Source: Neophaeotheca triangularis (taxonomy: Eukaryota). From it: a stretch of DNA of 64,000 nt. The notes under the pieces are model-generated. The model searched no databases and had not been told where the DNA came from. It saw only the letters and a program-made list of their open reading frames with translations. Made by a program: the position numbers and the translations under genes. Shown piece by piece: positions 2,263 through 31,851 of this stretch (position 1 is the stretch's first letter; every line of letters begins with the position of its first letter). Where the stretch lies: NCBI GenBank assembly GCA_054600435.1, contig BAAIJX010000008.1:124001-188000 (forward strand). Direction: 5' to 3'.

Positions 2263-2421
2263 GTTGGGCGATGGTGAGGATAATTGCTGAGGGAGTGGTG
2301 GCAATGGTAGAAAGGTGGTAGGAGCTGAAGGCTAGGTCAGGTACAGTACAGTACCTATACCTAGGTATGAAGAGTCGTGGCAGAAGCTCATGGGCAGAGA
2401 GGGCAGGGCTGCCGAGGTTGG

Positions 2422-2560
2422 GACTGTCGGCCATACTTACCTTCGGGACAATTCAGCGATTTTTCGATTTTCGAAATCCGAATTCTTGAATCTTAGATTC
2501 TTGAATTTATGTTTTGTGGTTAGAACAACAACAATCATTGCGGTTAGAACAACAATGGTT
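2422..2560 (+). repeat. Left terminal inverted repeat of the DNA transposon
   Basis: Aligns to the reverse complement of ~28720-28859 (gactgtcggccatac...gaaatccga...agattcttga...atgttttg..gttagaacaacaac). Confidence 0.9.
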
Positions 2561-3624
2561 GTAAGATTTTCAATTCTTTCGCAAATAGATCACCGAGCCT
2601 TCATTGTGCTAGTGGTTAGAACAACATATTAGCTCATAGTCATACTCGTAGGTAGAACAAGAAACCTAGTTAAATTCACGTTTTGTGTATAGAACATCAA
2701 ACTAACAACACACATAGCAGTTAGAACAACAATCGTAAGAAGGACATATTTGCTTATACGGAAAGGGATCTAAACCTATATCATAGTAGCAGTTAGAACA
2801 ACATTTCTAGTCTCCCTCGTTATAATAACAAACCTCTATTATGCTAAGGTTAGAACAACATATCAACTTTCTTCTACCGCCAATGCACCTATTCCCTTAA
2901 TTCCTAGCAGATTCCTTCTCACTTAGGAAAGACGACCTTCTCGAGAAGACTAGCATTGTCACGTCTAGCTACTACAACCTAGCTTCCTTCTCACTTATGT
3001 CCCTTTTTGTAGGTAGTTAGAACAAAAAGCCACCTCCCTTCCTAATTAGCTATATCCGTCTTGCGCTAGTTAATAGCTTTTCCTAGAACAAAAAGTATAC
3101 GTTAATGCACGTAGCGAGGGTATAACGTCTAGTTAGAATAACAATAATGTTTAGTTAGAACAACAATGTTTTTAAGTAGAACAACAACTTAAACAGTTAG
3201 AATAACAACGTTCTAGGTTCCTGATTAGCCGAGAGTCCTCGGCGTCTAGCTTACCCCGGACTACGCCGCATTTACTCAAGCCGTTTTCGGTTCTAGCTTT
3301 GCATTCCTTAACTTTTAGCTTCTTTATACAAACGTCACACTATCTTGCTATAAACAGCACTTTGACCATAAAATGTTCGACATTATAAGCTATAAGCGGC
3401 ATTGTCTTCTCCTCATTCATTTTCATGCGCCGCTTACGGCCTTAGGTATTATCTAACGCCTTAGGCGTTAAAAGCGCTCTCTATCTTACTTATCTCGTCG
3501 ACATTAACTCCGCCTTTACTACACGATTCACTGACTTAATATTCCGCGTAATATAGACACCTCTTTAACCGACGTAGAGGACATATAGACACTACTTAGC
3601 TTAGCGGGTAACGATAGGATAGAC

Positions 3625-4500
3625 ATAGCCGAAGAGTAGGTTTTCGCGCGTATTCCTTTACTAGTTCCTCTACTAGTTCCTCTACTGATTACGGCTCCTT
3701 GCCATAGTAATGCGACTTAACCGCCTACCCTTATTTTAACGAAGTAGTAATAACCCCGATCAAAAAGCTCTACGCCGCCACAGCTACCTAAGGACCTCTC
3801 CTACCTATAGCGACCGAAAACTACGGATACGGGCGCTTTCTAGTTTAGGAGCGAAGATGACTAGAATGCGTTAGTTATAGCAATAGCTTTAGAGTCTAAA
3901 AAGGCCGCCCTATAGCTACTTAAGAAGGTCGACGCTACTAGGCATATAATGGAGACAGAAGAGGGTATTAACGTACTAGTACCTTGCGATAAGTACGTTA
4001 GTCGTAAGGGGGTGCTCTACCGTATATTTAAGGACAAGAGCGAGGCATGCGCTTTTTGCCGTCGTAACGGCAAATCTGCCTATAACGCTCGTAAGAGCCC
4101 GAAGCCCCTTATAAACACTAAGCAGATTACTAGCCTAGAGGAGCTTGTCGAGAGCTTGTTAGATTAGCTATAGATAGTAAATCTACATATCGATAAGTTA
4201 GAGGAGTCGTTTAGGGAGGAGGTTGCAGATGTTAAGGGGGATATATAGCAAACATCGGTAGATCTCACTACTTTAGACAAGGAGTTAAATACTGACATTA
4301 TTAGTTTACACGATAGCTTTAAGGGTTTTAAGGGGGAGATAAAGGTAGTAGTCACAAATATCAGCTCTTAGCTTAAGAAGTTAAGGAGTGCGGTATTAAG
4401 TAGAGAGGATACTACTACGGAGATTTTAGAGTAGGTCGGGGATGTTTATTAGTCGCTTTAAGCGATTACTACTGCGAATACCTAGCGAACGGCCTTGATT
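3625..4500 (+). pseudogene. Transposon accessory gene A: Zn2Cys6-like cluster + long coiled coil, RIP-degraded
   Basis: One frame broken only by TAG/TAA codons. 3985-4083 reads C-DK-Y-VSRKGVL-Y-RIFKDKSEA-C-AF-C-RRNGKSA-Y, where the Y codons TAC/TAT revert to TGC/TGT by G>A RIP. Followed by heptad-rich LEELVESLLD...IDKLEESFREEVADVKGD. Ends approximate. Confidence 0.7.
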
Positions 4501-4712
4501 TACTATAGACATGTGGTCTATAGCCTAGAAGCCTTTGAATTATATATCAACTTCTTTTTTCTACTCGACCTTTATCGGTAAATGTCTTTTATCGATGCCG
4601 TTCGAGCCTAAACTTAGACCCTAATTTAACCGGTAGACGTTATTCATACTTTTTGTTCTAAGAGCCATTAATTACGACCGCATTTGCGCGCTAGCCTATT
4701 ACAAGGCCCCTA

Positions 4713-5080
4713 ATTTGTTGTTCTAACTAAAGACATTATTGTTCTAACTACGCTATTCCCGCGTAATACCGCGCGAGATATGCGCGGGATTCTACGCTAC
4801 AAAACAGTGCCTAGGGTTTTTGTTCTAAGAACAGCTATCCACTAGCGCGTCTGTCTCTCGACCTATTATAACGCTTCAGATTTGTTGTTCTAACTAAAGA
4901 CATTATTGTTCTAACTACGCTATTCCCGTGTACCGCGCGAGATGTGCGTAGGATTCTATACTACAAAACAGTGCCCGGGGTTTTTGTTCTAAGAATAGCT
5001 ACCTACTAGCGCGTCTATCTCTCGACCTATCATAAAGCTTTAGATTTGTTGTTCTAACTAACATACATTGTTGTTCTAAT
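4713..5080 (-). repeat. ~165-bp tandem duplication rich in reverse-oriented AGAACAACAA motifs
   Basis: atttgttgttctaactaaagacattattgttctaactacgctattcccg starts at ~4713 and ~4880, with a partial third unit at ~5044. Confidence 0.85.
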
Positions 5081-5315
5081 TAGGGCTGTAATGTTTAATC
5101 TCCTACGGAATCCGTAGGGGAATATACCGAACTATACGCTAAAACATTACGAGATCCGTAGCGCGTCCTTAGGAGTTAAAAAAGTCGAAAACATCCTATC
5201 ACTAGCGTAGAACTTAAGTTGATCAAGAAAAGGTTCAAAAACTACGAATAGCTACCTAACTAAGTAAAACGGACAACATATAGTAGTAGTAGTACCTAGC
5301 ACACCGGTATACCAC

Positions 5316-6322
5316 TTAATCGGTACACGCGGCGCCGTCGAAACGGCACTACGAGCACTTCCCCTTCCCCTTCTTCCCCTCCTATTACTACTACGCAGCT
5401 ACCGTATAAACACGGTAGCCTACGTAGCCGCGCTCGTAGTAGCGAGTATAAGCTGAGGGGCGGGGGACCCCTTCGCCCCCTACCTCCTTAATATAACCTA
5501 CGTGGGTTAGGCGACGGCGAAAGGCGTCGTTACGCCCTATAAGGAAAAGATTAGTACTAGAACAACAATCGGAACCGCTTAGGGTTTAACTTACTATCCT
5601 ACGCGTTCGTAGCGAAGGTATACTAGGTTACGCTACCCCCTATAGGGCGGCGGAAGGCGAAAGTACTACCCGGAGGGCGGCTAGGGGTCCTTAGTATACC
5701 CGTAGGCATAGGAGTTACCGAGGTAGGGGCGGCGGGAGTCGTGGGGGCCGGGGGGGTAGGCGTAGGAGTAGCGGTAGTAGGAGTAGCGGTAGTAGGGGTA
5801 GCGGTAGTAGGGGTAGCGGTAGTAGCGGTAGTAGGGGTAGGCGTAGGCGTAGTAGTAGTAGGAGTAAAAAGACTAATAGGAGTAGGGGCGAAGAGAGTAG
5901 TAGGGCTAGTAGGAGTAGTAGGGCTAGTAGGAGTAGTAGGGCTAGTAGGGGAAGGCGAAGACGAGGGCGTAGGGGAGGGAGTACGCGAGCGGAAAGGGGA
6001 GCTACCCCTATCGTCCGAGTCGCCCCCGAAGGGGATAGGCCCGTCTAGGGGTAAGCCCCCCTCCGTCGCTAACTCCGTCTCCCTAGTAGGAGTAGGAGTA
6101 GTAGCGGTAGTAGTAGTAGCGCCTAGTAGCCTACCGACGGCACGACTATTAGTCTCGTTAGTTATTAAGCTTAAAAGGTTATAGTAGGTTTAGAACTTAC
6201 GCGACGCGTACCGTCCTACTACGTAAACTACCGCGAGGAAGAGCACTAGTAAGCTAGAGTACGACCGGCTCGTACTACTCTACGCGCGACTACTGTCGCG
6301 CGCGAGCGCGGAACTCGGACAT
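5316..6322 (-). pseudogene. Transposon accessory gene B: spliced, Pro/Ala(Thr)-rich, with C-terminal Cys6 cluster, RIP-degraded
   Basis: ATG at 6322. Intron 5594-5537 (GTAAGT...ACTAAT...TAG) preserves the frame. The last exon reads RRRLTHVGYIKEVGGEGVPRPSA-Y-TR-Y-YERGYVG-Y-RVY..(x19)..C-S*-C-RFDGAA-C. The low-complexity ACT/CCT tract probably derives from GCT/CCT by RIP. Confidence 0.65.
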
Positions 6323-6472
6323 AGTAGTAGTAGTAGTAGTAGTGGTGATGTTAGTGTTAGTGTTAGTGTTAGTGTTAGTAGTAGTGTTAGTTACTAGTAA
6401 AGGCAAGAGGGTGAAAATCGCTAAGGCGAGAAAGAGAAAGAGGAAGAGAGTGGTTTAAGCGAAGGAGCTTAG

Positions 6473-6930
6473 TGTTACGATCCTATAAGGTAGTCTTACG
6501 GGTAGAGCTCGTAGCGGAAGAGGAGAGATATCGAAGAAGGCTAGCAAGGGTGTTTCCTTTATCGTAAGGATTTCAAAGATACGTAAAGTGTCGCTATAGA
6601 CCTTTTAGTAAGATTGTAACATAAGTTAAACACAAATCTCTATCTAGGAAATGTCGCTTCCTAAATACAAAGGAGATTCGTGTTAATCATCCTAATTAGT
6701 AGTGCTTAGTTCTATTAAGCGTCGCTAAGCAAAAGGCATACTTAGTGCTTAAGACTAATCAGTAGTAATTAGTTCAACTAAGCATTACTAAGTAGGAGGC
6801 TACTTAGTTCTTAGCGTGCTTAGTTCTTAGTAAGCTCCGTATGCTTAGCCTCGGAGTCCTACCGTTAGCGTCTTTAGTCTTTATCTAATAATCTCTTCCT
6901 TCCTGTCCTAATCATGTGTTGTCCGTAACA
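6473..6930 (-). repeat. 3' LTR of gypsy copy 1
   Basis: Direct repeat of 13265-13722; about 14 differences by eye, all but one transitions. Confidence 0.97.
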
Positions 6931-7030
6931 CTATCCCCCTTCTAGCTTAGCGTCGTCTCGACGCTAACGTTATAAGTCTCGTGGCTCGCCCTACTCTTTC
7001 TTTTTAGCTAAATCATGGTTTCCTCTTAGC

Positions 7031-7645
7031 ATGCCTAACAACTAGCCTAGCCGCAGCACTATCCGTCGTCGCGAATTAGCAACTTTTGTCGAAACTTACG
7101 GAAAGGATATAGTGAAGCCATATAGAACGTACTCTAAGCATAAGCGTATATGTCGGGTCTATATTCGTTCGGGAAAGTGTAGCGAGTGTCTTCGTCGGGG
7201 TTAGAGGTGTGATCTCTAGGTTTCATCATCGGAATAGGATAGGTTAAAGCGGGAGCGGACGAAACTTTAGTCGTCTATTAAGGAGGCGTTCGAGGCGTAA
7301 CTCTCTACTCGCGTAGTAGAAGAAGAGGCTCGACGGGCTAAAAATGCTACCCGCGAGGCTTTGTCTTCCGCCTTTACTAAGGAATAGCGCTTACGTCGAC
7401 AACTCGATCTCCTAGAGAAACGAGAGGTAGAGGCAATAGCTGTAGAGGAGGCTAGTATCGAGGCTAAAGAGGAGAAGGAAAAGGAGGGCGAAAACGTAAC
7501 GCTCCCTCTCGAGGATTTAGATCCGGGTCTAGGCATCATTCTTTCTCCTTCTACGTAGAATACGTTAGACGGTAGTTTTAATCTCTCGGCCGACTTCTAG
7601 AATTTTAGTGCTAGCGATATTGTTATAGGGCCCTCTAGTAGTTAA
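7031..7645 (+). pseudogene. Antisense ORF of gypsy copy 1: Zn2Cys6-like cluster + coiled coil
   Basis: 205-codon frame: MPNN*PSRSTIRRRELATFVETYGKDIVKP-Y-RT-Y-SKHKRI-C-RVYIRSGK-C-SE-C-LRRG*R-C-DL (CX2CX6CX8CX2CX6C after reverting two TAY codons), then a charged coiled coil RLRRQLDLLEKREVEAIAVEE. Confidence 0.8.
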
Positions 7646-10600
7646 GTAGGTTATCCTTAGGTTCCTAAGTGTTCTCGCTTTAGGATACCCTTTCCACTTT
7701 ACGAGGTAGTTCTAACCGTCTTTGTCTAGAATCTTTTCGACCTCATACTCGGCTTCTTCCTCTAGTAGATCGTGGTGAAAGGTGTCTTAGATTAGTGTTT
7801 CGGCGTCTACTAGCTCAAGTAGGGATATATAAAAGACTAGGTAGACTCTAGCGTCTTTTAGGAGTTAGAGGAGGTAGTTAACCTTTCCTCTTTATTCCTT
7901 AACCAGAAACGGTCCGACTTTAACATAGTCTAGTTTTCGTGTTCGTCTCCTTGTCTTTAGGTTTTTCGTAAGTAGGTACACCTTATCCCCCTTCTTAAGC
8001 TAAGGTGCCGTTTTAGAGTCCTTATGTCTCTATAACTCGAGTCGCCGTTACGACTATGTGATCTTGTCCTTCGCCTATTAGTGTGCTTCTTATAGCTACG
8101 AAGACGTCTGTAGGGCTCTTTCTACGAGCGGTCCTAGCTTTAGTTCTATAAATGTGTTTAGATCCTTTCCGAAATTTGCATAGAACGGTGTTAAGCCTAT
8201 CGTTTCTAAGGCATTGTTGTTAAGTGCGAGCTATGCTATAGGTAAGAGCGCTACCTAATTGTCCTAAGCGTAGTTAACGTAATGCCGCAAATACGTTTCG
8301 AGGGATTAGTTTAAGCGTTCCGTCTATCTATTAGTTTCGGGGTAAAATGCCGTCGAGAGCTTATGTTTTACTCCTATCGCTAATATCAAGGTCTTCTAGT
8401 AATTAGATGTGAAGAGCTTGTCTCTATCCGTAATTAGAACCGTTAGAATGCTGTAGTATCGTACTAGTCTGTTAAGAACGAGATATCCGAGTTCCTCTAT
8501 AGTGATTGTCTCGTTACAGGGAACAAAATGTAAGTACTTCGTGAGTCTGTCGACCATAACTAAAATTGAATCGTAGTCCTTACTTGTCGACGGGTCCTTA
8601 GATCTTAGTAGTTTAACAATAAAATCCATTATAACCTCGTTCTATAGTAGATCCGGTAGCTCTTAGAATTGTAGATTTCTATACTTAGCGTGTCTTAAAG
8701 CTTTGTTTTACTAGTAGCTCGTACATTTCTTGATATACTCTAAGACTTTCTGTCTTATTCCGGGGAACACGAAGTTATGTCTAATGTATTCTACTGTTCT
8801 AGTAATTCCTAGATGTCCGTTAGTAGGTCTATCGTAGTGATCCTAGATGTACTAGCGTTCCTTCTCGTTTAGAACCCTAAACTTCCTATGTTCGACAGGG
8901 AATTCCTCGGTATTATCCCTAAGTACTCGTAGTACTAAGTTAAACTCTTAGGGGTTAGCGCTTAGGCTTCCGTCCTTATTAACCTTCAGTATACGGTGTT
9001 GTTATAGAAGGTATCCTTCTATATAGTCGCTTCTTCTACTTAGCGCGTCGGCGCGCCTATTGTCTTTTCCGGGAGTGTAAACTATGTCGAACTTGTATTG
9101 TCCGAGTAGCTCTAACTATCTGCATTGTTAGCGTAATAGTTCCTTAGTAGTTATGAAATATTGTAGGTTCTTATAATCCGAGTAAATAGTTAGTCCGGTT
9201 ACTCCTTCACAGTATACTCTCTAGTATCGTAATACTATAACAATTGCGAGTAGTTCTTTGTCGTAGATCTCGTAATTCTGTTCCGCTAGTGACATTTTCC
9301 TTAAGAAGTAGGCGATAGGGTGTCGTTTGCTTTTAACCTCCTACGTAAGGTAAGCTCCTATTGCTCTATCGGAGGCATTAGTCTCGATTTAGATAGGTCT
9401 CTTAGGGTTAAACATCCTTAGCGTAGGGGCAGTCGTACATAACTCCTTAAGCTTATCGAAGGATTATTGTTAAATCTTTCCCTATACGAATAGTGTATCC
9501 TTTTTCGTAAGGTTAGTTAGAGGTATAGCGAGCCTTAAGTAATCCTTTACGAATTTCCGATTGTAGTTAGCTAATCCGAGGAATGCTTAAATGTCTTTAA
9601 CTGATTTAGGTGTCGGCTATTCCTCGATCGATTAAGTTTTCTTCGGGTCTATTCGGATCCTAGTAGTACTAATCACAAAACCTAGAAAGTCGACTTCCTT
9701 CTTATAGAACTCGCATTTCTCTAGTGCTGTTCTGAAGTCTACTTTATCGAGTCGTTCGAATACTGCGTGTACGTCCTTTATATACTATTCTCGTGATCCT
9801 TTCGTGAAGACTAATATGTCGTCGATATAAGCGATGATAGTAATGTCGAGTAGGTCTCGTAGGATGTCGTTAACGAGTTGCTAACAGGTTACTAGGGCGT
9901 TTGTAAGTCCTATAGGCATAACCTAGAATTCGTAAAGTCCGTAGCGCGTTCGAAAAGCTGTTTTCTACTCTTCCCCCCTTGCTATTCTAACTAAGTAGAA
10001 TGTATCTCGGAGATCGATTTTAGTAAACTAGTGTAAACCGGTGAGTCGATCTCTTATCTCGTCGATGTTAGGTAGTGGATAACGGTTTTTAGTAGTGATC
10101 GCATTAAGTCGTCTAAAATCGATAACCATTCGTAGTTTTCCTCCTTTTTTCGGAACGAAAAACGGTAGTAAAGCGGCTAATGAAGTAGAGGGTCAAATCT
10201 ATCCTTTCTTCATTTTCTCATCTAGCCATTATCGTTACTCTTCGAGCTCTTTTTCGGATAGCGCGTAAAGTGGCCCCTATAGTATCTTCGTACCGGGCTA
10301 AATGTCGATTCGGTAGTCCTATAGTTAATGTCTAGGTAGAGCGGCTACTCCTCCCTCTTCCTAGAAAAGGCGCTTCTATTTCCTGAATTCTCTAGGGATA
10401 TCCGAAGGTACGTGACTTCCTTCCTTAACTCTTACCTGTTAGTCCGTTTAGGCTAGTTCGGTACCTGTAGAGTCCGATCTAATTCGTATTAGTATCGTGG
10501 TCGATTAGCGATACGTTTCGTTAATCTGCCTTCTCTTATCTACCGTCGATCGCTGCCGGCGCGTAGGGTAGGTTGTAGTGACGTAACTATACCTGTCGAA

Positions 10601-13224
10601 TATAAGTACTCGTTTTCTCTAATCTACTATAGGATTATGTCGTTCTAACTAAGGAGTGCCTAGAACGACGTCATGTCTAGCTATAGGCATAACGTCTAGG
10701 ATAATTCGCTCGTGATGCTTTTAGAAGACAAGTAGTAGCGGTACTGTTTCGCTATCTACGTCGGGTAGTAATAAGCCGTCTACGGCTATTAGTTCGTACC
10801 CGCTATCTATTTTCTTCTAGGTAGCTAGCCTATACTAACGTACGAAGGTTTCCAAGATAAAGTTTCCGCTAGCTCTAGAATCTATTATAGCGAGGGTTTC
10901 GTATCTGTTAACAGTACATGTTGTTCGGAAGACCGTTCCTAATACTATTTCATGTTAAGTATTTGTGTTGTTTAGTTCCTAACGCTCGCTCTTAGCGATA
11001 GGTCCTATTCGTTTTTTGAGAAGTAGGTAGATGAATCCGCTGTTTCGAGAGAGACTTCCTAATAAAGGGGTCCGTCCCGAGGTCTAATCGTAACCTTTCC
11101 TTAGATCGCGTGTACGGTAATAGGTCCTCGTGTAGTTGCTTTAATATGTCCGAGAATCATCTTTCGGTCGACTAGTAGTAAAAACTTGTCGCGCGGTACT
11201 ATAGTCTATTAGTCTAAGGAATACTATGCTTACTTCTTCATTTCTTGTAGCGTGATTTCTTCTTCTCTCCATTACTCCTAGATAAGCTAGAATTCTCTAT
11301 AACGATTCTTAACTATTTTGACTCTTTGTCTTATAGAATGTGGGATCCGTATCCCGTCTAGCGTAATGTAGCCGTTTTCTCCGTGAAAAGTGCTTCCTAT
11401 CGGTAGCCTGTCCTAGATAAAGGTAGCGGCGTTATACTCGACGGCGACCTTTCGGTAGTCCTAGAACATTGCTCGTAGTCGTATAAGTATAGCTTCGAAT
11501 TAGTTAGGTTCTAAGCGTCGTTTGCCTTAGATCATTAGGAACACTTCTTCGTACGATCGTGTAATGTGAATGACCATTTTCTTAATTAGGTTTAGTCCGT
11601 GCATAATGAACTCTACTACGTCGTTGTCGTCTAGTTCGTTATCGTCGGTGTAGTCGTATTCGGAGTCGTCTTTAGAATCTATCACTGTCGTATCCTCTTA
11701 CGATTCTAGAATCTCTAGAGGCATTAATAGTCTTAAAGGGCTAACCTCCGGTATTAGTACGATCGTAGTAAGTTCCGGTGTCTAAGATATATCTTCGTTT
11801 TCTAAGTTAGGTGTCGGTAGTGCTATCGTCGATAATAGTACTTAGTTTTCTTGCAGTTTGTCGTCCTCCTATGCAAATAGAGGTAGGGACCTTCCTCGGG
11901 CTACGTTACCGTCGTCCCTTGACTGCTATAATGGTTAGCGTCTTAACATCATGTTAAGTTCCTTCTAAGGCTTACGTAGTTACTTAGATTCTTCGTCTGC
12001 TATAGCCTTAATCCTATTATTTAGATCTGCTATCTAATCGGCTACTTAGATTATAAGGTTAAAGTGTTCTTTAGTCTACTCCTTATGACTAACTAAGTCG
12101 TCGTGAAACTCCCTAAGCTTCTAGTATTACTCGATTAGCGCGTCCGTTCCGGACTTCGGGGTAACTCGTTTAATAACATTTACTTCCTTCCGAGGTCTAA
12201 TAGGTATTCCGTTAGTTACTAGTCCCTGACTTTTGTGTACTAAATAGTAATCCCTCTTACAAAACCTCTAGTAAAGTTCGTCGTGTTCCGGTTCTTCGTA
12301 GGTTCCGGTAATGTCGTAAGCTCCGTAGCTCTTATCGGTAGGAGAGTCGTTATCCTATCGGGTTAAAATCGCATTGACCTCCTAGCGTAGGCGCATCTAT
12401 TTCCTACGGCAGTCTCGTGTATAGTGCCCTATCTTATAGTAGTTATAGCATTCTAGTCCGTTCCGTTTCTTGCCTAGGGCGTTCTGTTTGCCCCGTCCTC
12501 TATCCCTACCCTTCCTAGGACGTTATTACGTAGAGTCGAGTTCTATCGTATTAGGATCGCGACATTACTAACCGATAGGCCGGCTGCCGGTAGCATAGCT
12601 AGTTCGTCCGCGAAATTGTCTAGTGTAGCGTTTTTCTATAAACCGTTTGTAGAGAGCGTTATTAACCTCGATCGCCGATCTAATTATACCGGGGAGAGTT
12701 GACTAATCGCCTCCGTAGCGTATAAGTTCGTCCTTCACGTTGTCCTTAAGTCCTCGGTAGTATATAGTTATAAGAGCGTTGTCGTCCTAGTCGGTCTTAG
12801 CTAAGTACTCTTAAAACTTAGTAGTGTACTAAGAGGTAGACGTTTTCTACGTGAGGTGCTAAATCATTCGGATAGCAACTTGTCGATCGTTACTCAATCC
12901 GTAGACGTTACGGATAACCTTAACAAAAGACTTCTAGTTCGAGAATAGTCCTTTAGGGTCGATTCGTTCTATAAGGAAATCCGTAAGCTTAGGGCGGATC
13001 TAGTGTTAAGCTTCTCCTCGAAGGAACGAAGTAGTAGTAAGAGGTTACTTCTACTTACTAACGCTTTCTATAAGGAAGAATATCATTATCTAGTTAACCT
13101 AGTCGTCTAGCTTATTACGTTCGCCGTAGAAGTAGTCCGGTTTAGTAACCTTGTTAGTAGTTATAGTTAATACTCCTCATTAGGTGCTAGCGACGCTTGC
13201 GTCTCGGTTATCGGATAGGGACAT
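7560..13224 (-). pseudogene. gag (13224-11005) and -1-frameshifted pol (PR-RT-RNaseH-IN-chromodomain) of gypsy copy 1
   Basis: Reverse complement is co-linear with copy 2 gag-pol; integrase fragment MDFIVKL...ITDRDKLFTS at 8396-8629; many TAA/TAG RIP stops. The pol end is approximate. Confidence 0.93.
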
Positions 13225-13264
13225 ACTTGCCTATTAATCTCTCCTTCCTAGAGGGTATTCAAAG

Positions 13265-13722
13265 TGTTACGATCCTATAAGGTAGTCTCACGGGTAGAGC
13301 TCGTAGCGGAAGAGGAGAGATATCGAAGAAGGCTAGTAAGGGTGTTTCCTTTATCGTAAGGATTTCAAAGATACGTGAAGTGTCGCTATAGACCTTTTAG
13401 TAAGATTATAACATAAGTTAAACACAAATCTCTATCTAGGAAATGTCGCTACCTAAATACAAAGGAGATTCGTGTTAATCATCCTAATTAGTAGTGCTTA
13501 GTTCTATTAAGCGTCGCTAAGCAAAAAGCATGCTTAGTGCTCGAGACTAATCAGTAGTGATTAGTTCAACTAAGCATTACTAAGCAGGAGGCTACTTAGT
13601 TCTTAGCGTGCTTAGTTCTTAGTAAGCTCCGTGTACTTAGCCTCGGAGTCCTACCGTTAGCGTCTTTAGTCTTTATCTAATGATCTCTTCCTTCCTGTCC
13701 TAATCATGTGTTGTCCGTAACA
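13265..13722 (-). repeat. 5' LTR of gypsy copy 1
   Basis: Followed on the minus strand by CTTTGAATACCCTC (PBS position) and the gag ATG at 13224. Confidence 0.97.
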
Positions 13723-14149
13723 CTTAGTTTTAACGCTGTCTAAAGTTCACTTGAAGTGAGTTAGAACAAGTGAGGTAGAATAATAACCTTATAGGTAGAA
13801 CAATAACGACCATTGTTCCTACGCCCTTTATCGCGGCTACATGCGGCGAGGTAAGGTTAAAAGGTAAGGAGAGGTAGAGAGGCGAGGTTAAGGTGTCTTT
13901 ATGTCGCCCGTCTCTTTAGCTGCATATAGCAATTCGGGACCTTAGGAATGTTGTTCTAACTAGGCGACGTTATTGTTCTAGCTAACAAGGATATCGCCGT
14001 CACGCCTAGATTAGGGAACATTAATAGGAAACTCGGTTCACTCGTTAACTTACCGTGCCTTGCTTAGAACAACAATTGATTAGGTTAGAATGAAAATGAA
14101 ACTAAGAGGGTACATTTACAGAGTAAATAGACAAACCCGTATTGTATAC

Positions 14150-17005: not shown

Positions 17006-17045
17006 CTTTGAATACCCTCTAGGAAAGAGAGATTAATAGGCAAGT

Positions 17046-19265: not shown

Positions 19266-22200
19266 GACCTGTCGCTAAGAGCGAGCGTTAGGAACTAAAC
19301 AACACAAATGCTCAACACGAAATAGCATTAGGAACGGTCTTCCGAACAACATGTACTGTCGACAGATACGAAACCTTTACTATGATAGATTCCGGAGCTA
19401 GCGGAAACTTTATCTCGGAAACGTTCGTACGTTAGCATAGGTTAGCTACCCAGAAGAAAACAGATAGCGGGTACGAACTGATAGCCGTAGACGGTTCATC
19501 ACTACCCGACGTGGATAGCGAAACAGTACCGCTACTACTTGTCTTCCAAAAGCATCACGAGCGAATTGTCCTAGACGTTATGCCTATGGCTAGACATGAC
19601 GTCGTTCTGGGCACTCCTTAGTTAGAACGACACAATCCTACAGTGGATTGGAGAAAACGAGTACTCACATTCGACAGGTGTAGTTACGTTACTACAACCT
19701 ACCCTGCGCGCCGGTAGCAATCGACGGCAGATGAGAGAAGGTAGATCAACGAAACGTATCGCTAATCGACCACGATACCAATACGAATTGGATCGGACTC
19801 TATAGGTACCGAACTAGCCTAAACGGACCAAGAAGTGAGAGTTAAGGAAGGAAGTCACGTACCTTCGGATATCCCTAGAGAATTCAGAAAATAGAAGCGC
19901 CTTTTCTAGGAAGAGGAAGGAGCAGCCGCTCTACCTAGACATCAACTATAGGACTACCGAATCGACATTCAGCCCGGTGCGAAGATACTATAGGGGCCAC
20001 TTTACGCGCTATCCGAAAAAGAGCTCGAAGAGCAACGACGATAGCTAGATGAGAAAATGAAGAAAGGATGGATTCGACCCTCCACTTTATTAGCCGCTTC
20101 ACTACCGTTTTTCGTTCCGAAGAAAGGAGGAAAATTACGAATGGTTATCGATTTCAGACGACTCAATGCGATCACTACCAAAAACCGTTATCCACTGCCT
20201 AACATCGACGAGATGAGAGATCGACTCACCGGTTCACACTGGTTCACTAAAATCGATCTCCGAGATGCATTCTATTCAGTTAGAATAGCAAGGGGGGAAG
20301 AGTAGAAAACAGCTTTTCGAACGCGCTACGGACTATACGAATTCCAGGTTATGCCTATAGGACTCACGAATGCCCTAGCAACCTGTTAACAACTCGTTAA
20401 CGACATTCTACGAGACCTACTCGACATCACTGTCATCGCCTACATCGACGACATATTAGTCTTTACGAAAGGATCACGAGAACAGCATACTAAGGACGTA
20501 CACGCAGTATTCGAACGACTCGACAAAGTAGACTTCAGGACAGCACTAGAGAAGTGCGAGTTCTACAAGAAGGAAGTCGACTTTCTAGGCTTTGTGATTA
20601 GCACTACCGGGATCCGAATAGACCCGAAGAAAACTTAATCGATCGAGGAATAGCTAACACCCAAGTCAGTTAAAGACATCTAAGCATTCCTCGGATTAGC
20701 TAACTACAATCGGAAATTCGTAAAGGATTACTTAAGGCTCGCTACGCCTCTAACTAACCTCACGAAGAAGGACATACCATTCGTATAGGGAAAGATTCAA
20801 CAACAATCCTTCGATAAGCTTAAGGAGTTATGCACGACTGCCCCTACGCTTAGGATGTTTGACCCTAAGAGACCTATCCAAATCGAAACCGATGCCTCCG
20901 ATAGAGTAATAGGAGCTTGCCTCACGTAGGAGGTTAAAAGCAAACGACACCCTATCGCTTACTTCTCGAGGAAGATGTTACTAGCAGAACAGAATTACGA
21001 GATCTACGACAAAGAACTACTCGCAATCGTTACAGCATTACGATACTAGAGAGTGTACTGTGAAGGAGCAACCGGACTGACTATTTACTCGGATTACAAG
21101 AACCTACAATACTTTACAACTACTAAGGAACTGTCACGCCGACAATACAGATAGTTAGAGCTACTCGGACAATACAAGTTCGACATAATCTACACTCCCG
21201 GAAAAGATAATGGGCGCGCCGACGCGCTAAGCAGAAGAAGCGACTACATAGAAGGACACCTTCTATAGCAACACCGCATACTGAAGGTTAATAAGGACGG
21301 AAGCCTAAGCGCTAACCCCTAAGAATTTAACTTAGTACTGCGAGTACTTAGGGATAACACTAAGGAATTCCCTGTCGAACATAGGAAGTTCAGGGTTCTA
21401 AACGAGAAGGAACGCTAGTACATCTAGGACTACCACGATAGACCTACTAACGGACATCTAGGAATCGCTAGAACAGTAGAACACATTAGACGCAACTTTA
21501 TGTTCCCCGGAATGAGACAGAAGGTCTTAGAGTACATCAAGAAATGTACGAGCTGCTAACAGAACAAGGCTTTAAGACACGCTAAATATAGAAATCTACA
21601 ATTCTAGGAGCTACCGGATCTACTATAGAACGAGGTTATAATGGATTTTATCGTTAAGCTACCGAGATCTAAAGACCTATCGACAAACAAGGACTACGAC
21701 TCGATTCTAGTCATGGTCGACAGACTCATAAAGTATTCACATTTCGTTCCCTATAACGAGATAATTACTACAGAAGAACTCGGATACCTCGTTCTCGACA
21801 GATTAGTACGATACCACGGCATTCTAACGGTTCTGATTACGGACAGAGACAAGCTCTTCACATCTAACTACTAGAAGACCTTGATATTAGCGATAGGAGT
21901 GAAACACAAGCTCTCGACAGCATTTCACCCCGAAACCGATAGACAGACAGAACGCTCAAACTAATCCCTCGAGGTGTACTTAAGACATTACGTTAACTAC
22001 GCTTAGGACAATTAGGTAGTACTCTTACCTATAGCACAGCTCGCACTTAACAACAATGCCTTAGAAACGACAGGCATAACTCCGTTCTACGTAAACTTCG
22101 GAAAAGATCTAAACACGTTTATAGAACTAAAGCTAGGACCGCTCGCAGAAAGAGCCCTGCAAACGTCTTCGCAGCTACAGGAAGCATATAAATAGGCAAA

Positions 22201-22717
22201 GGACAGAATTACACAGTCGTAACGGCGACTCGAGTCACAAAGACATAAAGACTCTAAAACGGCACCTTAGCTTAAGAAGGGGGATAAGGTATACCTGCTT
22301 ACGAAAAACCTGAAGACAAGGAGACGAACACGAAAACTAGACTATGTCAAAGTCGGACCGTTTCTAGTTAAAGAACAAAGAGGAAAAGTCAACTACCTCC
22401 TCTAACTCCTAAAAGACGCTAGAATCCACCTAGTATTCTATGTTTCCTTGCTCGAACTAGTAGACGCCGAGACACTAATCTAAGACACCTTCCACTACGA
22501 TCTACCTAAGGAAGAAGCCGAGTACGAGGTCGAAAAGATTCTAGATAAGGACGGTTAGAACTACCTCGTAAAGTGGAAAGGGTATCCTATAAGCGAGAAC
22601 ACTTAGGAACCTAAAGACAACCTACTTAACTGCTAGAGGATCCTACGGCAATATCACTAGGAATTAGACCAAGGTCCCAAAACTCGTTAGGTAGGCCGTC
22701 TATCGAAGTCTAAGTAA
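19259..22717 (+). pseudogene. pol of gypsy copy 2: protease, RT, RNase H, integrase, chromodomain
   Basis: MIDSGASGNFIS (protease); [14 protein letters not shown] and YIDDIL (RT); IETDASD (RNase H); MDFIVKLP...TDRDKLF (integrase); EYEVEKIL...YLVKWKGY (chromodomain, ~22520-22630). Confidence 0.95.
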
Positions 22718-23246
22718 GAGGATTTAAAGCCAGATCGGGACCCGGCTAATCAGGAGGAAAATCGGGATTAAAGAGCTCGTTACCGCCTTCCTTAAGCTCG
22801 AGGAGCTCGATGTTACGCTCTTTAACAGCTATAGCCTCTCCCTCCTTCTCCTGCAAACGGTCTATTTGTTTCCGAAGACGCATTTCCTTAGACAGCGAAC
22901 GATTTGCTTCCTCTTAAGCCTCAGCTACCTTTTGCTAAGCAACAACGGACACACACCGAGCCTCTTCTATCGCCTTGCGAAGACGCTCGTGATTACGACG
23001 AAGGCGAGCGAACTCGTTCTCCGTCACTCTTACATCGCAAGAAGAAATGTTTCGCCGTACGTAGGCGGCACACTTTCTAGACCGAATGTGTACCTTGCAC
23101 ACACGACCCGCCTCCCGGCATTGCGTACATTTTCGAACTATGTTAAGAACCGTTCCGTGCGAATCCAGGAAATTGAATAACTCGTGGCGACGAGTAGTGG
23201 AAGACTTCTTTGTTTTAGGCATCGCGTTAATAAAGGAAGATGCCAT
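22626..23246 (-). pseudogene. Antisense ORF of gypsy copy 2: Zn2Cys6-like cluster + coiled coil
   Basis: 207-codon frame; 23129-23037 reads C-TQ-C-REAGRV-C-KVHIRSRK-C-AA-Y-VRRNISS-C; continues past RIP stops as KEMRLRKQIDRLQEKEGEAIAV. Confidence 0.82.
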
Positions 23247-23310
23247 TAACTATGGAACGAAAGACAAGTGGAGAATAAGCTCGGGACGAGCTAGACTAGG
23301 AGGGGGATGG

Positions 23311-23794
23311 TGTTACGAATACTACGCTGCGCCTAGCGTACAATGGGGAATGCTTAGTAGAACCCACGGTCATAGGACAGAGCACATTCAGGTCACGTGA
23401 CATGCTCACCTCTGCTTAGTGCTTACCTTCAACTAAGCACTACTAAGCGACAGAGTAGTGCTTACCTCTGCTTAGTGCTTACCTTCAACTAAGCACTACT
23501 AAGCGACAGAGTAATGCTCACCTCTGCTTAGTGCTTACCTTTAACTAAGCACTACGGAGCGATAGATTACAGCGATTAGAGACACGGATCTCCTTTGTAT
23601 TTAGGTGGCGGTGTTTCCTAGATAGAGATGTGTGTTCAACTCATGTTACAATCTTACTAAAAGGTCTACAGTAACACTTCACGTATCTTTGAAATCCTTA
23701 CGACAAAGGAAACACCCTTGCTAGCCTTCTTCGATATCTCTCCTCTTCCGCTACGAGCTCTAAACCCGTGAGACTACCTTGTAGGATCGTAACA
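23311..23794 (+). repeat. 3' LTR of gypsy copy 2
   Basis: Preceded by the PPT and followed by TSD CGTAG. Confidence 0.97.
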
Positions 23795-25928
23795 CGTAGG
23801 AGCTCGGTAGGTACTACGACTCTATAGTCTCTCTTCCCGTGAACTTAAGGGAACTCATAAAGCATGTTTAGCACACCCGATACTACGCTTAGCCGGGCCT
23901 TTTGCTTCCTAATCTTATAGTTATTCTAGAGGGCTACATACTAGAAGTAGGCGTCTCGAATAATGGGCATATAGACAGCTAAAAAAGCAATGCAATGGCG
24001 AAAGTTGCTAGGCTAGTATTAACCGTCGATAACAAGCCTTTTAAAGTAACTCTTCTACTATTAGCTAATAGCGAGAAAGGATTTTCCCTACTAGACCTCG
24101 ATACGTTAGTTCTATTTGCTAGTACCGTATCGAAAGGCGTCTTCGAAGATAAGAGGCTCTTTATCGTCGCCCCTCTATAGGCTATTTGCAAGGTAATACT
24201 ACGCGTCTACGAGCATGACTGTTTCGGCCCCTTTATTAGAGGTCACTACTTAAGGCATTACGCCCCCGTCGCGAACACTCTAGAGGTACTATGCGCTAAT
24301 AGATACCGACGTACGCGCCGTAATACTAATGTATAGCTAGATCACCTTACGAGAGAAGGCGTTAATATAGCTATACACCTAGATACTATAACTCTCGAAC
24401 TTATATATAGCGTTAATCGACTAGACGTAGTTTAGACTAGGTATGTCTACTGTCCGCACGTGCCGAGTTGTGCGTAGGCGTCTTTCGAAACCGGCCGGAT
24501 TTATCTCTTTCGCGATCCTCTAGAGCCGGTTCCTATATAGGTGTCTAGTTAGCGATCAGTAGGCGATTATGGTGCGAACGACTCGTGTTATCCTATGCAT
24601 GTATTAAGTAGCGAACTCACCTTCCTACTACGTTGTATTTCGAGCGTAGGGTCACATAAAGTGACTCGAGCCCGAGGTCCTTAACCCTTCTACCCTCTAG
24701 TTCTTATGTATAGACATCTCGTGTCCATTACTCTATTGCTACACCGAGCTCTATGTCATCTATATATCTCTTGCGTAGTCCTATTAATGCCCTTAACTTA
24801 GCGATCTACCGTACTACTAAATTACCGTGACCGTCGTGTTTTAGGACTATGGCAATCTCTAGATCCGTGAGGCGCCGCTCACTAAATAACATGTGTAGAC
24901 GCGCGCGCATTGCCTCTATATCTAAGAGAGCGATAATAGGCCGGCGACGGGGTAATTACTATTCTACGACCCTTCTACGGAGACACTTTTAGTTAATAAC
25001 TATACCGTATCGTGTAAGTAAGTGTGCGCGAACGTAGTTATAGGTATAGGAGTTCGTAAGTAACTAAGTGATTTCCTCGCGATAAGGCTCTAGGTCGATC
25101 TTTCGATAGGGTATAGTAGTAGAGAGCTCGACATACTCGGAGGGCGAGAGAATAGTAGTAGAGAGCTCGACACACTCGGAGGGCGAGAGAACTTTAGTAT
25201 GTTAAAGGCAGGATGTAATCCTGTTAGGTACGAAGGTATAGTGGCTTAGTTAGAACAACAATGTCCCTTAGTTAGAACATTAATGGCCTCCGGTTAGGAT
25301 AACAACTTAGAAGCCCATTCCCCTCGATAGCCGCGAGGGATTTGCGGGAAGCATTCCCTTTTAGGAGTCTACCTATTGCCCGGTAATAGGTTAGCATTCC
25401 GGCCCTAGTTAGAACAACAACCTAGAAGCCTAGTAATAGGTTAGCATTCCGGCCCCGGTTAGAACAACAACCTAGAAGCCCGGTAATAGGTCGGTATGCC
25501 ACGCGCTAGTGAGCGGCTATTCCTAGAACAAAAATGTCCCTAGTTAATAACAATGTCCCTTAGTTAGAACAATAACTTAAAAGCCTAGTGATAGGTCAGC
25601 ACGCCACGCGCTAGTAAGCGGCTATTTCTAGAACAAAAATGTCACTAGCTGACAACAATGTCTTCTAGTTAGAACATAAATGCCTACCGGTTAGAACAAT
25701 AACCTAAAAGCCCTATGATTAGTCAAAATAAGACCACGCTAGTAAATGGCGGTTTTTAGAATAGAAACCCTACGGCTTTTTCTAGTTTTTCTTTTCTACC
25801 TAGTTAGAATAACAACTTCCTCTACATATAGAAACGAAGCAGGCATTAAGAAAGAGATAGACTACCTCTACTCCCGTATAGACGGGCCCTACTCTAAACC
25901 CCTCCTCTAAGGGTAAGGTCGAAGATAC

Positions 25929-26245
25929 GGGGTTTACGGACGGTATAGGAGTAGAGGCCCTCGTTGTCGGAGGAGGGGTTTACGGACGGTGTAGGAGTAG
26001 AGGCCCTTGTTGTCGGAGGAGGGTTTACGGACGGTATAGGAGTAGAGGCCCTCGTTGTCGGAGGAGGGGTTTACGGATAGTGTAGGAGTAGAGGCCCTTA
26101 TTGTCGGAGGAGGGTTTACGGACGGTATAGGAGTAGAGGCCCTTGTTATCGGAGGAGGGTTTATAGACGGTGTAGGAGTAGAGGCCCTCGTTATCGGAGG
26201 AGGGGTTTACGGATAGTATAGGAGTAGAGGACCCCGTTATCGAGG
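25929..26245 (+). repeat. Minisatellite, 7 x 45-46 bp (ggtttacggacggtataggagtagaggccctcgttgtcggagga)
   Basis: Units start at 25931, 25977, 26022, 26068, 26113, 26158 and 26204. Confidence 0.95.
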
Positions 26246-26609
26246 AAGCCGACTAGTAAGCCGACTAGTAAGCGAACTCGCCGCCATAAAAGCCTAACAC
26301 GTACGGACTCGCTACCATAATACATAGTCGCCTAGTAGTATGTAGAGCCCCTTACGTAGGCTTAGAGCTAGGATGTAGATAAGGATAAAGTGTAGCGACG
26401 TAGGCAAACGACTAGCTACTATTAGGCGCGTCCTAGCGGAGTACGACGAGGATAGGTCTATATTGTCGGCGGCGACGTCAATTAAGGATACAGTCTGCCT
26501 TAGGGGCGGTAACCTTATAGTTAGCGCTATAGTTAATCATCTAGGCACACCCTACTACCTAAGCGAACTCGCCGCCATAAAAGCCTACTACGAGCGGATA
26601 GTGTCGAGG

Positions 26610-26930
26610 GTCGCTTCTACGTCTAAGCTACGTCTTCATTACCTCTAAGCGCTTACTAGGATTGCTCCTACGTCCTAAGCTACGTCTCTATTGCTCCCTT
26701 AGGCCGTTACTAGGGTTACTCCCTCGGGCGCTTACTAGGATTACTCCTACGTCCTAAGCTACGTCTCTATTGCTCCCTTAGGCCGTTACTAGGGTAGCTC
26801 CCTCGGGCGCTTACTAGGGTTACTCCCTCGTACGCTTACTAGGATTACTTCTACATCCTAAACTACGTCTCTATTACTCCCTAGGGCGCTTACTAGGGTA
26901 GCTCCCTCGGCTCCTTACTAGGATTGCTTC
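26610..26930 (+). repeat. Composite tandem array (cgcttactagg.ttactccctcggg / ctacgtcctaagctacgtctctattgctcc units)
   Basis: Interleaved ~24-30-bp units visible by eye. Confidence 0.8.
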
Positions 26931-27500
26931 CCTATACTAGAGTAGCTCTACTAAACTAAGCTTCCTCTTCTAGAGTAGTCGCTACTATTGCTTTAAGGCG
27001 CGTAAGGCAAGGGCGGCCCGTAATAGGACGCTTACCTCGCTACGAGGCGGACAAGGCGGCGCTGATTTGATAATAGCGGTGTGCTAGGTCTATCATGTCG
27101 ATGTAGACTTTCTAGCCTAAAAGGTATAGACGTACTCGGGGGGGCGAAGCGACTTAGGTCTACTCGATAGAAAGGTAATCCCTAGGGGCTATATCCCCGG
27201 GGGGTAGGGGGGGCGGTAGAAGGTTAGAATAATAATCTCCCTTAGTTAGAACAATAACTTAGGACACCTAAGATTAGTCGACAGGAAACCACGCTAATAA
27301 AGGGCTATATTTAGAACAAAAACCCTACGGCTTTCTTCTACATACTACTATCCTAGTTAGAATAGCAATCTATCCTAGTTAGAACAATAACACATAACGC
27401 TTATGTAGCCGGTTTACGGCATGCTATCTCGCGGCTCCTAACCCTCGACGGTTAAGCGGATCGGTATACCTTTACGGCGTAGTCGTTTGTCGTGGCTCTA

Positions 27501-27650
27501 GGTAATGTTCCTCGTCTTTATCTACGGTAATGTTCCTCGTCTTTATCCGCGGTAATGTTCCTCGTCTTTATCTGCGGTGATATTCCTCGTCTTTATCCGC
27601 GGTAATGTTCCTCGTCTTTATCCGCGGTAATGTTCCTCGTCTTTATCCGC
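27501..27650 (+). repeat. Minisatellite, 6 x 25 bp (ggtaatgttcctcgtctttatccgc)
   Basis: 25-bp period starting at 27501. Confidence 0.95.
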
Positions 27651-27778
27651 GTCGCTCCTAGGGCTTCTAGACCGGTGCGTAGAATAGTGGTGTCGTACCG
27701 TCCCTCCTAGGAGTTTTCTCGTGAGAAGGAAGGTCCGCTAACTCTTATAGTCGCTACGTATTTATCGACGCAGCTTCT

Positions 27779-28185
27779 ATGGTTAGCCGTAGTGTCGGTA
27801 GTGTGTTAATACGTACTTGCGTCTTACGCCGTAGTAACTATCCGTCCTATAGTTAGCCGTAGTGTTAGTAGTATGTTAATGCGTGCTTACGTCTTACGCC
27901 GTGGTAACTGTCCGTCCTATAGTTAGCCGTAGTGTCGGTAGTGTGTTAATACGTGCTTACGTCTTACGCCGTAGTAACTGTCCGTCCTAGAAGTTCTCTC
28001 GTGAGAAGTAAGGTCCGCCGGCTCTCGTAGTCGCTACGTATTCATCGACGTAGCGTCTATAGTTAGCCGTAAGGTCAGTAGTATGTTAATGCGTGCTTAC
28101 GTCTTACGCCGTAGTAACTATCCGTCCTATAGTTAGCCGTAGTGTCGGTAGTGTGTTGATGCGTGCTTACGTCTTGCGCCGTGTA
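27779..28185 (+). repeat. ~70-bp tandem array (~5 units, one interruption)
   Basis: atagttagccgtagtgtcggtagtgtgttaatacgtgcttacgtcttacgccgtagtaactatccgtcct recurs at ~27779, 27849, 27919, 28059 and 28129. Confidence 0.9.
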
Positions 28186-28329
28186 GAAAAGGTTCGAGAT
28201 TATAGAGCGTGACTTTAGCAAATACACGTACCGATGTTATTCTACCTATGAAAGGAGATCGGTAGAATTCGTAAGAAGAGGCTATCCTTTCCATTATAGC
28301 GCGCTTTTATAAAAGGACTAGAAAGGGAA

Positions 28330-28640
28330 TTATTATTCTTACTACAATCCTAGTTGTTATTCCTACTGCAAAATCAGTTGTTATTCTTACTGCAAAATCA
28401 GTTGTTGTTCTTACTACAAAATTAGTTGTTGTTCTTACTACAATCCTAGTTGTTATTCCTACTATAAAATTAGTTGTTGTTCTTACTACAATCCTAGTTG
28501 TTGTTCCTACTACAAAATTAGTTGTTATTCTTACTACAAAATCAGTTGTTGTTCTTACTATAAAATCAGTTGTTGTTCTTACTGCAAAATTAGTTGTTAT
28601 TCTTACTGCAAAATCAGTTGTTGTTCTTACTATAAAACAC
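28330..28640 (-). repeat. Subterminal array, 13 x 24 bp (ttgttgttcttactacaaaatcag)
   Basis: 24-bp period; each unit carries the reverse-oriented AGAACAACAA motif. Confidence 0.95.
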
Positions 28641-28719
28641 GAACCTATGAATCCGGCTAGAATTTTAAGAATTGCTGTGAATAAGATTGTTGTTCTAACT
28701 GTGACACGCCTCTATTAGG

Positions 28720-28859
28720 AACTACAAATCATATTGTTGTTCTACCTACTAATGTGTTGTTGTTCTAACTGCAAAACATGAAATCAAGAATCTATGTTTC
28801 GAGAAATCGGATTTCGGAAAATCATAATATTGTCCCCAAGGTAGGTATGGCCGACAGTC
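28720..28859 (-). repeat. Right terminal inverted repeat of the DNA transposon
   Basis: Ends ...attgtccccaaggtaggtatggccgacagtc, followed by TSD ttgg. Confidence 0.9.

Positions 28860-31814: not shown

Positions 31815-31851
<37 letters not shown>

Follow-up and report, generated by a model that had tools for sequence, protein, structure and literature searches.

We analysed a 64,000-nucleotide stretch of the genome of the fungus Neophaeotheca triangularis (GenBank assembly GCA_054600435.1, contig BAAIJX010000008.1, positions 124,001 to 188,000 of the forward strand), called here the window, whose own positions are used throughout. With high confidence, an autonomous DNA transposon of the cut-and-paste type, with a transposase of the IS3EU/GingerRoot lineage, occupies positions 2422-28859 as a single old insertion; it measures 11,905 bp once two later Ty3/Gypsy elements nested within it are removed. 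Apart from the transposase gene and a probable second gene, these 11.9 kb consist mainly of motif blocks and tandem arrays, and extra cargo genes are not demonstrated.

The insertion stands out as a block of low G+C at ~2.4-28.9 kb (0.38-0.51, versus mostly 0.50-0.60 outside), and a repeat search of the window found inverted repeats that end exactly at 2422 and 28859. These terminal inverted repeats (TIRs) include the arm pairs 2422-2474/28807-28859 (53 nt, 79%) and 2468-2533/28755-28820 (66 nt, 86%). In a global alignment their tips agree at all of the first 15 positions and at 29 of the first 31, and the arms can be aligned over ~135 nt with small indels. The termini read GA..TC (GAC..GTC at both ends) and are bordered on either side by TTGG. 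No further site anywhere in the window resembles the tip with up to two mismatches, and allowing three returns the two ends plus one chance site in the first nested element, with no extra internal tips.

A public-run search provided two relevant data sets: X1, the probable source run, and X2, a second sample from the same study with the same organism label. Their contigs were aligned to window positions 23000-32000. One X2 contig of 3,690 nt aligns with 28860-30871 (16 differences in 2,012 nt), its alignment beginning exactly at the right copy of TTGG, and the last 30 letters of its overhang before 28860 correspond to window positions 2388-2417 (29/30 identical). X2 thus passes from the left flank through a single TTGG into the right flank (..gccgagg TTGG ctcgcgg..), which indicates that the whole 26.4-kb block of the occupied locus entered as one unit, duplicating 4 bp; the length of the duplication is set by this comparison of filled and empty sites. 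X2 depth is zero over the transposase region 23903-25708, and among the parts of the element without X2 cover only the contig join across the site was used as evidence. A hidden 6-bp duplication, resulting from wrongly placed boundaries, was also considered; checked with shifted boundaries and against the TIR register of the related elements, it fits neither the filled nor the empty site.

It is hardly conceivable that the two TIRs are instead independent short elements bracketing unrelated DNA. A single copy is available, and internal motif blocks (see below) could suggest several units; however, the whole block is absent from X2, where exactly one TTGG is left, elements with the same transposase family have homologous TIRs, and the repeated motif occurs nowhere outside the block.

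Two copies of one long terminal repeat (LTR) retrotransposon family, LTR1 and LTR2, lie in opposite orientation within the element and are 91% alike over 5,615 nt. They separate three host segments of 4051, 2794 and 5060 bp, which sum to the 11,905 bp given above. On its plus strand LTR2 shows the Pfam order RVT_1, RNase H (RT_RNaseH), Integrase_H2C2 and Chromo, with no Pfam match on its minus strand, and this order of reverse transcriptase, RNase H, integrase and chromodomain identifies it as Ty3/Gypsy of the chromovirus type. The nested elements display the LTRs, the 5-bp target duplication and the domain order of Ty3/Gypsy. The transposase frame is uninterrupted across the LTR2 excision point, reading ..VVVPTELLRPLVESLEDF.., which independently confirms the LTR2 boundary. 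The LTR is highly repeated in both isolates, with a summed contig depth of ~12,600 in X1 and ~10,800 in X2, against ~120 for single-copy sequence.

The host element bears the mark of repeat-induced point mutation (RIP): its three segments have a TpA/ApT of 2.0-2.2 and a (CpA+TpG)/(ApC+GpT) of 0.44-0.45, where the flanks have 0.6-0.9 and 1.1-1.4, respectively. Both nested LTR copies are RIP-mutated as well. Of the 511 differences between them, 471 are transitions, mostly in CpA/TpG context, which implies that RIP acted after the LTR elements had arrived.

Much of this anatomy had been put forward in an earlier sequence-only reading of the window: TIRs matching at 29/31 tip positions and imperfectly over ~130 bp, a TTGG duplication, two nested LTR elements, ~11.9 kb left after their removal, and RIP. 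All of these stand, with the TIR ends now exact, the dinucleotide indices extreme inside relative to the flanks, and the LTR coordinates corrected to those of Table 1. The same reading had predicted an empty site rejoined at one TTGG, and the X2 contig, from a second isolate, contains it.

Table 1. Features of the element and of its nested insertions, in window positions
Feature	Position	Strand	Evidence or remark
Left copy of target-site duplication, TTGG	2418-2421		Empty site in X2 has a single TTGG
Left TIR, tip GACTGTCGGCCATAC	2422-2560	+	In register with tips of related elements
Subterminal block, 13 copies of TAGTTAGAACAACAA	2519-3208	+	Forward orientation
Candidate ORF (gene A): Cys pattern, then coiled-coil-like stretch	3640-4500	+	Pattern only
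Internal block, 9 motif copies in ~165-bp repeats (families D14, D20)	4650-5100	-	Reverse orientation
G+C-richer array, 9/15-bp period	5700-6140		Open on both strands, Thr/Pro-rich on minus
LTR1, Ty3/Gypsy	6473-13722	-	5-bp duplication CTTAG at 6468-6472 and 13723-13727
Probable ORF2, RIP-damaged CHCC finger at 15833-15738	14420-15833	-	RIP-aware pattern scan; motif from 19 loci
C-terminal transposase part (..IDxYLP..C..L..GF..)	16200-16521	-	tblastn to L005/L006/L010; frame continuous
LTR2, Ty3/Gypsy chromovirus-type, inside transposase gene	16522-23794	+	Duplication CGTAG at 16517-16521 and 23795-23799
Transposase exon with DDE core	23800-24532	-	D>N twice, E kept; 21 in-frame stops
Transposase intron, 88 nt, GTGAGT .. 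CTAAC .. AG	24533-24620	-	Removal restores homologue register
Transposase exon 1: Clr5-like HTH and second HTH-like region	24621-25114	-	Start codon now ATA
Right arm with five tandem arrays and, at 25249-27390, 14 motif copies in forward orientation	25225-28710		
Right TIR	28722-28859	-	Repeat search and global alignment
Right copy of duplication, TTGG	28860-28863		X2 contig alignment begins here

The transposase gene is recognizable despite RIP. When the host element was translated in 18 frames, with X in place of stops, and scanned with Pfam, only rva_4 reached its curated cut-off, in the minus-strand frame 24438-23893 (E=4.7e-6, 26.9 bits versus a cut-off of 26); all other matches had E>=0.013 and lay far under their cut-offs. 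Searched against 1.84 billion representative proteins, the translation of 24513-23803 matched 571 proteins with E<=1e-3; 181 of these have E<=1e-10 and 17 have E<=1e-30, and the top match has E=2.4e-42 at 37% identity. All 16 homologues that were scanned carry rva_4, 13 have a weak rve match, and three have Clr5. Their consensus reads PGPNYxWSIDAHCKLE .. IDAYSR .. RSDRGxET .. YGTSKxNQRIExWW. In the window, the first two catalytic positions have turned from Asp into Asn (AAC at 24414-24412 and AAT at 24237-24235), and the third is still Glu (GAG at 24099-24097).

Upstream of this core, exon 1 (25114-24621) is collinear with the N-terminal part of the homologues, P0004 being 30% identical, and its match to the helix-turn-helix (HTH) domain Clr5 has E=0.0022 and 18.6 bits, under the cut-off of 22.3. 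The two exons lie in different frames, and splicing gives ..NVVGR/NRLxRIAKEINPAGFERR.., in the register and at the length of the homologues; an intron interrupts the gene of the closest relative, locus L006, at this very point. No HHCC zinc domain precedes the core, which is a DDE domain of the RNase-H fold: the N-terminus is of the HTH type, collinear with that of Clr5-bearing homologues. A literature search did not find IS3EU paired with Clr5. The gene is dead several times over, with 36 in-frame TAA/TAG stops in ~515 codons, an initial ATG turned into ATA, and LTR2 splitting it. The earlier description of an intron-containing Clr5-like HTH plus integrase-core transposase agrees with the rva_4 match, the 571 homologues, the collinear N-terminus and the intron at 24620-24533. 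The catalytic residues it named (D ~24413, D ~24236, E ~24098) are at exactly these positions, both D now N, and the signature it cited (PGPN..WSID..SDxGxE..NQRIExWW) is that of the homologue consensus and matches three Repbase IS3EU rows.

A scan of metagenome contigs yielded 80 loci with relatives of this transposase, 42 of which were examined for inverted repeats. Such repeats bracket the transposase in 15 of the 42 loci, 14 of them distinct, with tips that are mostly TACGG, TACAG, TACCG or TATGG; the 14 measured elements span 2.65-9.3 kb. Exact 6-bp duplications were observed in two distinct elements, L046 (TCCCTG) and L051/52 (TGTGCC). The TIR of the window is in register with those of its relatives (ACCTT at 18-22, GACAA at 26-30), which shows that the window TIRs are cognate to this transposase family; its first position (G) aligns with the T of the relatives' TAC. 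A tree of 63 rows places the window next to L005/6 as its sister (92 in the Shimodaira-Hasegawa-like approximate likelihood ratio test), within a 25-row clade (93) that also contains L003 and L004. The latter two, near-identical elements at positions 106 and 4415 of their respective loci, have GACGG at both ends versus TACGG, a first-base difference which indicates that the terminal T is replaceable by G within one family; the flanks of L003 have only ATA in common. A scan of 36 ORFs (open reading frames) in the related elements gave matches for three, among them a weak Tet_JBP in L046 and DUF3716 in L008. L046:6555-13106 is a complete 6.55-kb element with TACGG tips in a 67-kb metagenome contig. 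Its Tet_JBP match reaches 25.5 bits, under the cut-off of 34.9, and it resembles the TET-carrying IS3EU families described in PMC12730594. Large ORFs with DUF3638, DUF3645 and a weak DEAD-helicase match lie near transposase relatives at L074:10648-13116 and at L075 and L076, and the inverted repeats around this type of ORF are probably not element ends.

These data can be compared with published families. IS3EU elements are described as having termini that are "always" TA..TA and duplications that are "usually" 6 bp (PMC10045372), and fungal IS3EU families as having TAYGG..CCRTA ends and TET/JBP passengers (PMC12730594), while DUF3716 genes are present in REP9/Styx, being reported for Styx/REP9-1 and REP9-2 (PMC8232023). 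By eye, the Repbase rows IS3EU-1_CGi, _CVi and _DR (Data S3 of PMC10045372) share the same W.ID / IDGFSR / xDxGxEN / NQRIE..W blocks. On the core motifs, the relatives' TAYGG tips, 6-bp duplications and TET/JBP or DUF3716 passengers, and the nesting in the tree, we assign the transposase to the IS3EU/GingerRoot lineage, an assignment that depends on a by-eye comparison of the core with Repbase rows and on a tree of the window and related loci.

An element of Ginger1, Ginger2/TDD or IS481EU would also have an integrase-fold transposase, and Ginger1 and Ginger2/TDD would share TIRs with the window element. Duplications are 4 bp in Ginger1, 4-5 bp in Ginger2 and ~4 bp in some IS481EU (PMC10045372), in line with the TTGG found here. 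We nevertheless regard these affiliations as very improbable. Ginger1 and Ginger2 differ by their TG..CA termini and gypsy-integrase-like cores, and Ginger1 by its HHCC domain, none of which is seen in the window, whose N-terminus is HTH; the best Pfam match is rva_4, with rve only weak in the homologues; the core fits the three displayed Repbase IS3EU rows and differs from the one displayed Ginger2 row; elements grouped with it in the tree show TAYGG tips and 6-bp duplications; and IS481EU is reported from parabasalids only.

The relatives also reveal a second gene. We clustered 805 ORFs of the 80 loci and built hidden Markov models (HMMs) from 11 clusters of accessory ORFs. One conserved accessory family is present in 19 of the 80 loci, usually beginning 150-200 bp downstream of the transposase and on its strand, with the N-terminal motif W-x3-C-x6,7-H-x6-10-C-x2-C-x3-N-P. 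The finger is followed by an ..IIDLSGDSPP.. motif and a Lys/Glu-rich tail, and the protein belongs to no Pfam family; the loci that carry it include L003, L010, L013, L014, L017, L019-L021, L023-L025, L027, L029, L033 and L043. Against the host frames the 11 HMMs gave nothing significant, one strong match being the transposase read antisense. In a RIP-aware scan, where each T may have been C and each A may have been G, the CHCC pattern matched exactly once in the six frames of the window, at 15833-15738 on the minus strand; of 200 shuffled versions of the RIP block, 3 gave any match at all. This match lies ~300 bp beyond the transposase, and a semi-open stretch continues from it in the same frame to ~14420; its position and strand are those seen in the relatives. 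It is therefore probable that the window carries the usual second gene of the family (ORF2), coding for a CHCC-finger protein.

Several observations weigh against our interpretation of the element as a whole. The IS3EU ends TA..TA and 6-bp duplication (6-8 bp in GingerRoot) are not found here, where the ends are GA..TC and the duplication 4 bp; for this reason we file the element as an IS3EU variant rather than a typical member. The sequence-only reading had it as IS3EU-type, which holds for the transposase lineage, and had overlooked this deviation. Both flanks are present for 13 of the distinct related elements (L014 lacks the right one), and 11 of these show no clean duplication, as may be expected of repeats in metagenome contigs. 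The tree behind the lineage assignment covers the window and the related metagenome loci, and Repbase IS3EU enters through the by-eye comparison. The window's own rva_4 match is barely above its cut-off and the Clr5 match below. ORF2 is only probable, since its scan pattern was partly shaped after the fact (a W-to-C spacing of 4 was allowed), and ordinary HMMs miss it. Finally, the element is a single copy in the source assembly: other copies were sought in Logan contigs at >=80% likeness, and the single-copy depth of the transposase region in X1 indicates that its assembly has no second full copy at that likeness, so that ends and content are without a check against a second full copy.

Both X1 and X2 contain short diverged fragments of the right arm from another locus (e.g. 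26352-26443). The contig from this locus matches ~100 nt of the right arm. Almost all of its ~20 differences are T>C or A>G, which marks it as a less-mutated piece of this repeat family at another genomic site; such matches also fall in the right-arm bins 25709-26009, 26913-27213 and 27816-28116. Two further runs are uninformative for the locus: the metagenome run X3 covers parts of the right flank and a single diverged fragment of 270 nt, without a junction, and X5, which has the same organism label as X2, contributed only two short pieces.

Among named systems, the closest likeness is with IS3EU/GingerRoot (PMC6839031), with which the window element shares a DDE core with W.ID / IDxxSR / xDxGxE / NQRIE..W blocks, the lack of an HHCC domain, TIR length (100-150 bp in GingerRoot, ~135 bp here), a two-gene core, of which the second gene is probable in the window, and the TAYGG tips and 6-bp duplications of the transposase's relatives. 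The difference is that the window copy ends in GA..TC and not TA..TA, with a 4-bp and not a 6-8-bp duplication. It further differs from its relatives in being larger, at 11.9 kb, than any of those measured, and in having a single short motif repeated more than 50 times.

As described, Styx/REP9 of Zymoseptoria tritici (PMC8232023, PMC10853768) resembles the window element in its integrase-type transposase, which is related to IS3EU, in holding sequence beyond that of a two-gene element, and in RIP, which has degraded copies in some species; the Styx TIR (Data S1 of PMC10853768) includes a near-copy of the motif with the TAGAACAA core seen in the window. It is reported as a 7.9-kb element with 43-bp TIRs, 6-bp duplications, four genes (two of them DUF3716) and many active copies, unlike the window element with its 4-bp duplication, TIRs about three times longer and single dead copy. 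Neither Pfam nor a profile built from 116 DUF3716 proteins detected DUF3716 in the window, where RIP damage could mask such a domain. For a kinship with Styx closer than the superfamily, the one shared feature is a short motif, which is a lead rather than a test. The TET/JBP-carrying IS3EU families of Pucciniales and Tuber (PMC12730594) belong to the same superfamily, likewise have passengers between their TIRs, and are resembled by the metagenome relative L046; they differ from the window element, which has no detectable TET/JBP or alpha-kinase gene.

Searching the short motif as GTTAGAACAACAA with up to two mismatches gave 58 matches in the window versus 1.45 expected, of which 54 lie in the host element, four in the LTR elements and none outside 2422-28859. 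The motif spans 13-15 bp (TAGTTAGAACAACAA), and its copies are often 22-24 bp apart. Apart from the left subterminal block, forward copies form blocks at 25249-25815 and 27223-27390, and reverse copies at 4650-5080 and 28378-28769. In the right arm, tandem arrays have periods of 45/46, 79/25, 25, 70/210 and 24 bp, in accordance with the several arrays noted by the earlier reading. The 24-bp array (28269-28709) holds at least 13 copies of the motif variant GTAAGAACAACAA just inside the right TIR, and has no left-end counterpart of that size. The 8-mer core of the motif is not enriched in the 80 relatives (9 occurrences in 392 kb versus ~12 expected), whereas the 36-nt Styx TIR given in PMC10853768 (Data S1) has GGTAGAACAATAG, one letter from window motif copies. 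The motif copies would be protein-binding sites of the element.

When active, the transposase may have bound the ends of the element through its HTH domains, with the 54 copies of TAGTTAGAACAACAA, in opposite orientation at the two ends, as likely binding sites. It would then have cut both ends and inserted the element with a 4-bp stagger into a ~600-bp region between divergent genes.

How the element reached 11.9 kb is less clear-cut. One explanation, to which we give close to an even chance, is that much of this length was acquired after integration, by duplication, growth of arrays and unrecognized insertions, from an ordinary two-gene IS3EU ancestor of 4-7 kb. At least five tandem arrays and several repeat families of 105-165 bp fill the arms, the motif blocks at 4650-5080 and 25249-27390 look like duplicated subterminal sequence, the related elements measured are all shorter, and only two genes typical of the family can be recognized. 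However, there are no extra internal TIR tips, no empty site supports further nested pieces, and sequence bearing the motif occurs in all three host segments, which argues that it belongs to the element itself.

Alternatively, the additional length may be that of a multi-gene transposon resembling Styx, with extra DNA-binding genes (3640-4500, perhaps 3339-3172) regulating the element or its host. The former stretch, gene A, has a Cys spacing at 3985-4083 of C-x2-[C/Y]-x7-[C/Y]-x9-C-x2-C-x7-[C/Y], with three Cys and three Tyr. This resembles the six-Cys layout of the L008 DUF3716 ORF, RIP turns Cys codons into Tyr, the near-copy of the motif in the Styx TIR points the same way, and 11.9 kb exceeds all 14 related elements. 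We nonetheless consider such cargo unlikely. The spacing departs from the Gal4-type Zn2Cys6 layout (C-x2-C-x6-C-x5-12-C-x2-C-x6-8-C), the first spacing being 7 and three of the six positions Tyr, and the match is the only one outside tandem repeats, the other six lying in the 24-bp array; the loose pattern also occurs once in control DNA. A Pfam search at E<=10 with the 65-aa segment and the whole frames returned only noise and no Zn_clus, BLASTP against the L008 DUF3716 ORF gave E=16, none of 2,194 candidates scored in a word-indexed homologue search (covering lengths 157-503 only), and the CHCC-finger HMM scored 1.8 on gene A, no better than on control DNA. No conservation of gene A was found in the 80 related loci: tblastn of the 18 host-frame translations against them gave 116 matches, all within the transposase parts 16207-16422 and 23800-25276. 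Stop-codon density proved useless as a measure of coding, the true transposase frame not being the one with fewest stops.

The sequence-only reading had counted at least three accessory genes, two of them with Cys6 clusters, and had seen in them the element's own regulators. What remains of the Cys6 genes is one non-repeat pattern without Pfam, homologue or profile support, and the zinc-cluster cargo is not borne out by any Zn_clus or DUF3716 match, homologue or conservation in the 80 loci. One presumed accessory gene does persist, as what is probably the family's ordinary second gene, retrieved by the RIP-aware scan. Taken as a whole, that reading was right about the anatomy and the empty site, and its regulator-carrying multi-gene family did not hold up. 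A broader proposal, which we put forward as speculation and consider improbable, is that an IS3EU sub-lineage related to Styx exists outside Zymoseptoria, whose members would have GA..TC ends, a 4-bp stagger, dozens of TAGTTAGAACAACAA sites about two helical turns apart that recruit the transposase, and ~12 kb with extra DNA-binding genes.

IS3EU is among the least characterized superfamilies of eukaryotic transposons, and the papers cited here describe it chiefly through Repbase entries and a small number of examples from fungi and plants. The element described here is a cleanly delimited fungal member with matched filled and empty sites, which is rare for RIP-degraded elements, and it shows that the lineage can make 4-bp duplications and end in GA..TC, so that pipelines requiring TA..TA and 6 bp would miss such copies. 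The analysis also brings out a CHCC-finger second gene conserved across 19 metagenome loci. The remaining interest of the locus lies in a well-delimited atypical member of a poorly known superfamily, and in a candidate transposase-binding motif with a near-copy in the TIR of Styx, an active element associated with pathogenicity.

Finally, the insertion site is a divergent intergenic region of ~600 bp. Its left neighbour is a 461-aa ORF (946-2331, minus strand) without a Pfam family, and its right neighbour a gene for a CAF1-family ribonuclease (29370-31190, plus strand). In the element-bearing isolate these two genes are 26.4 kb further apart.

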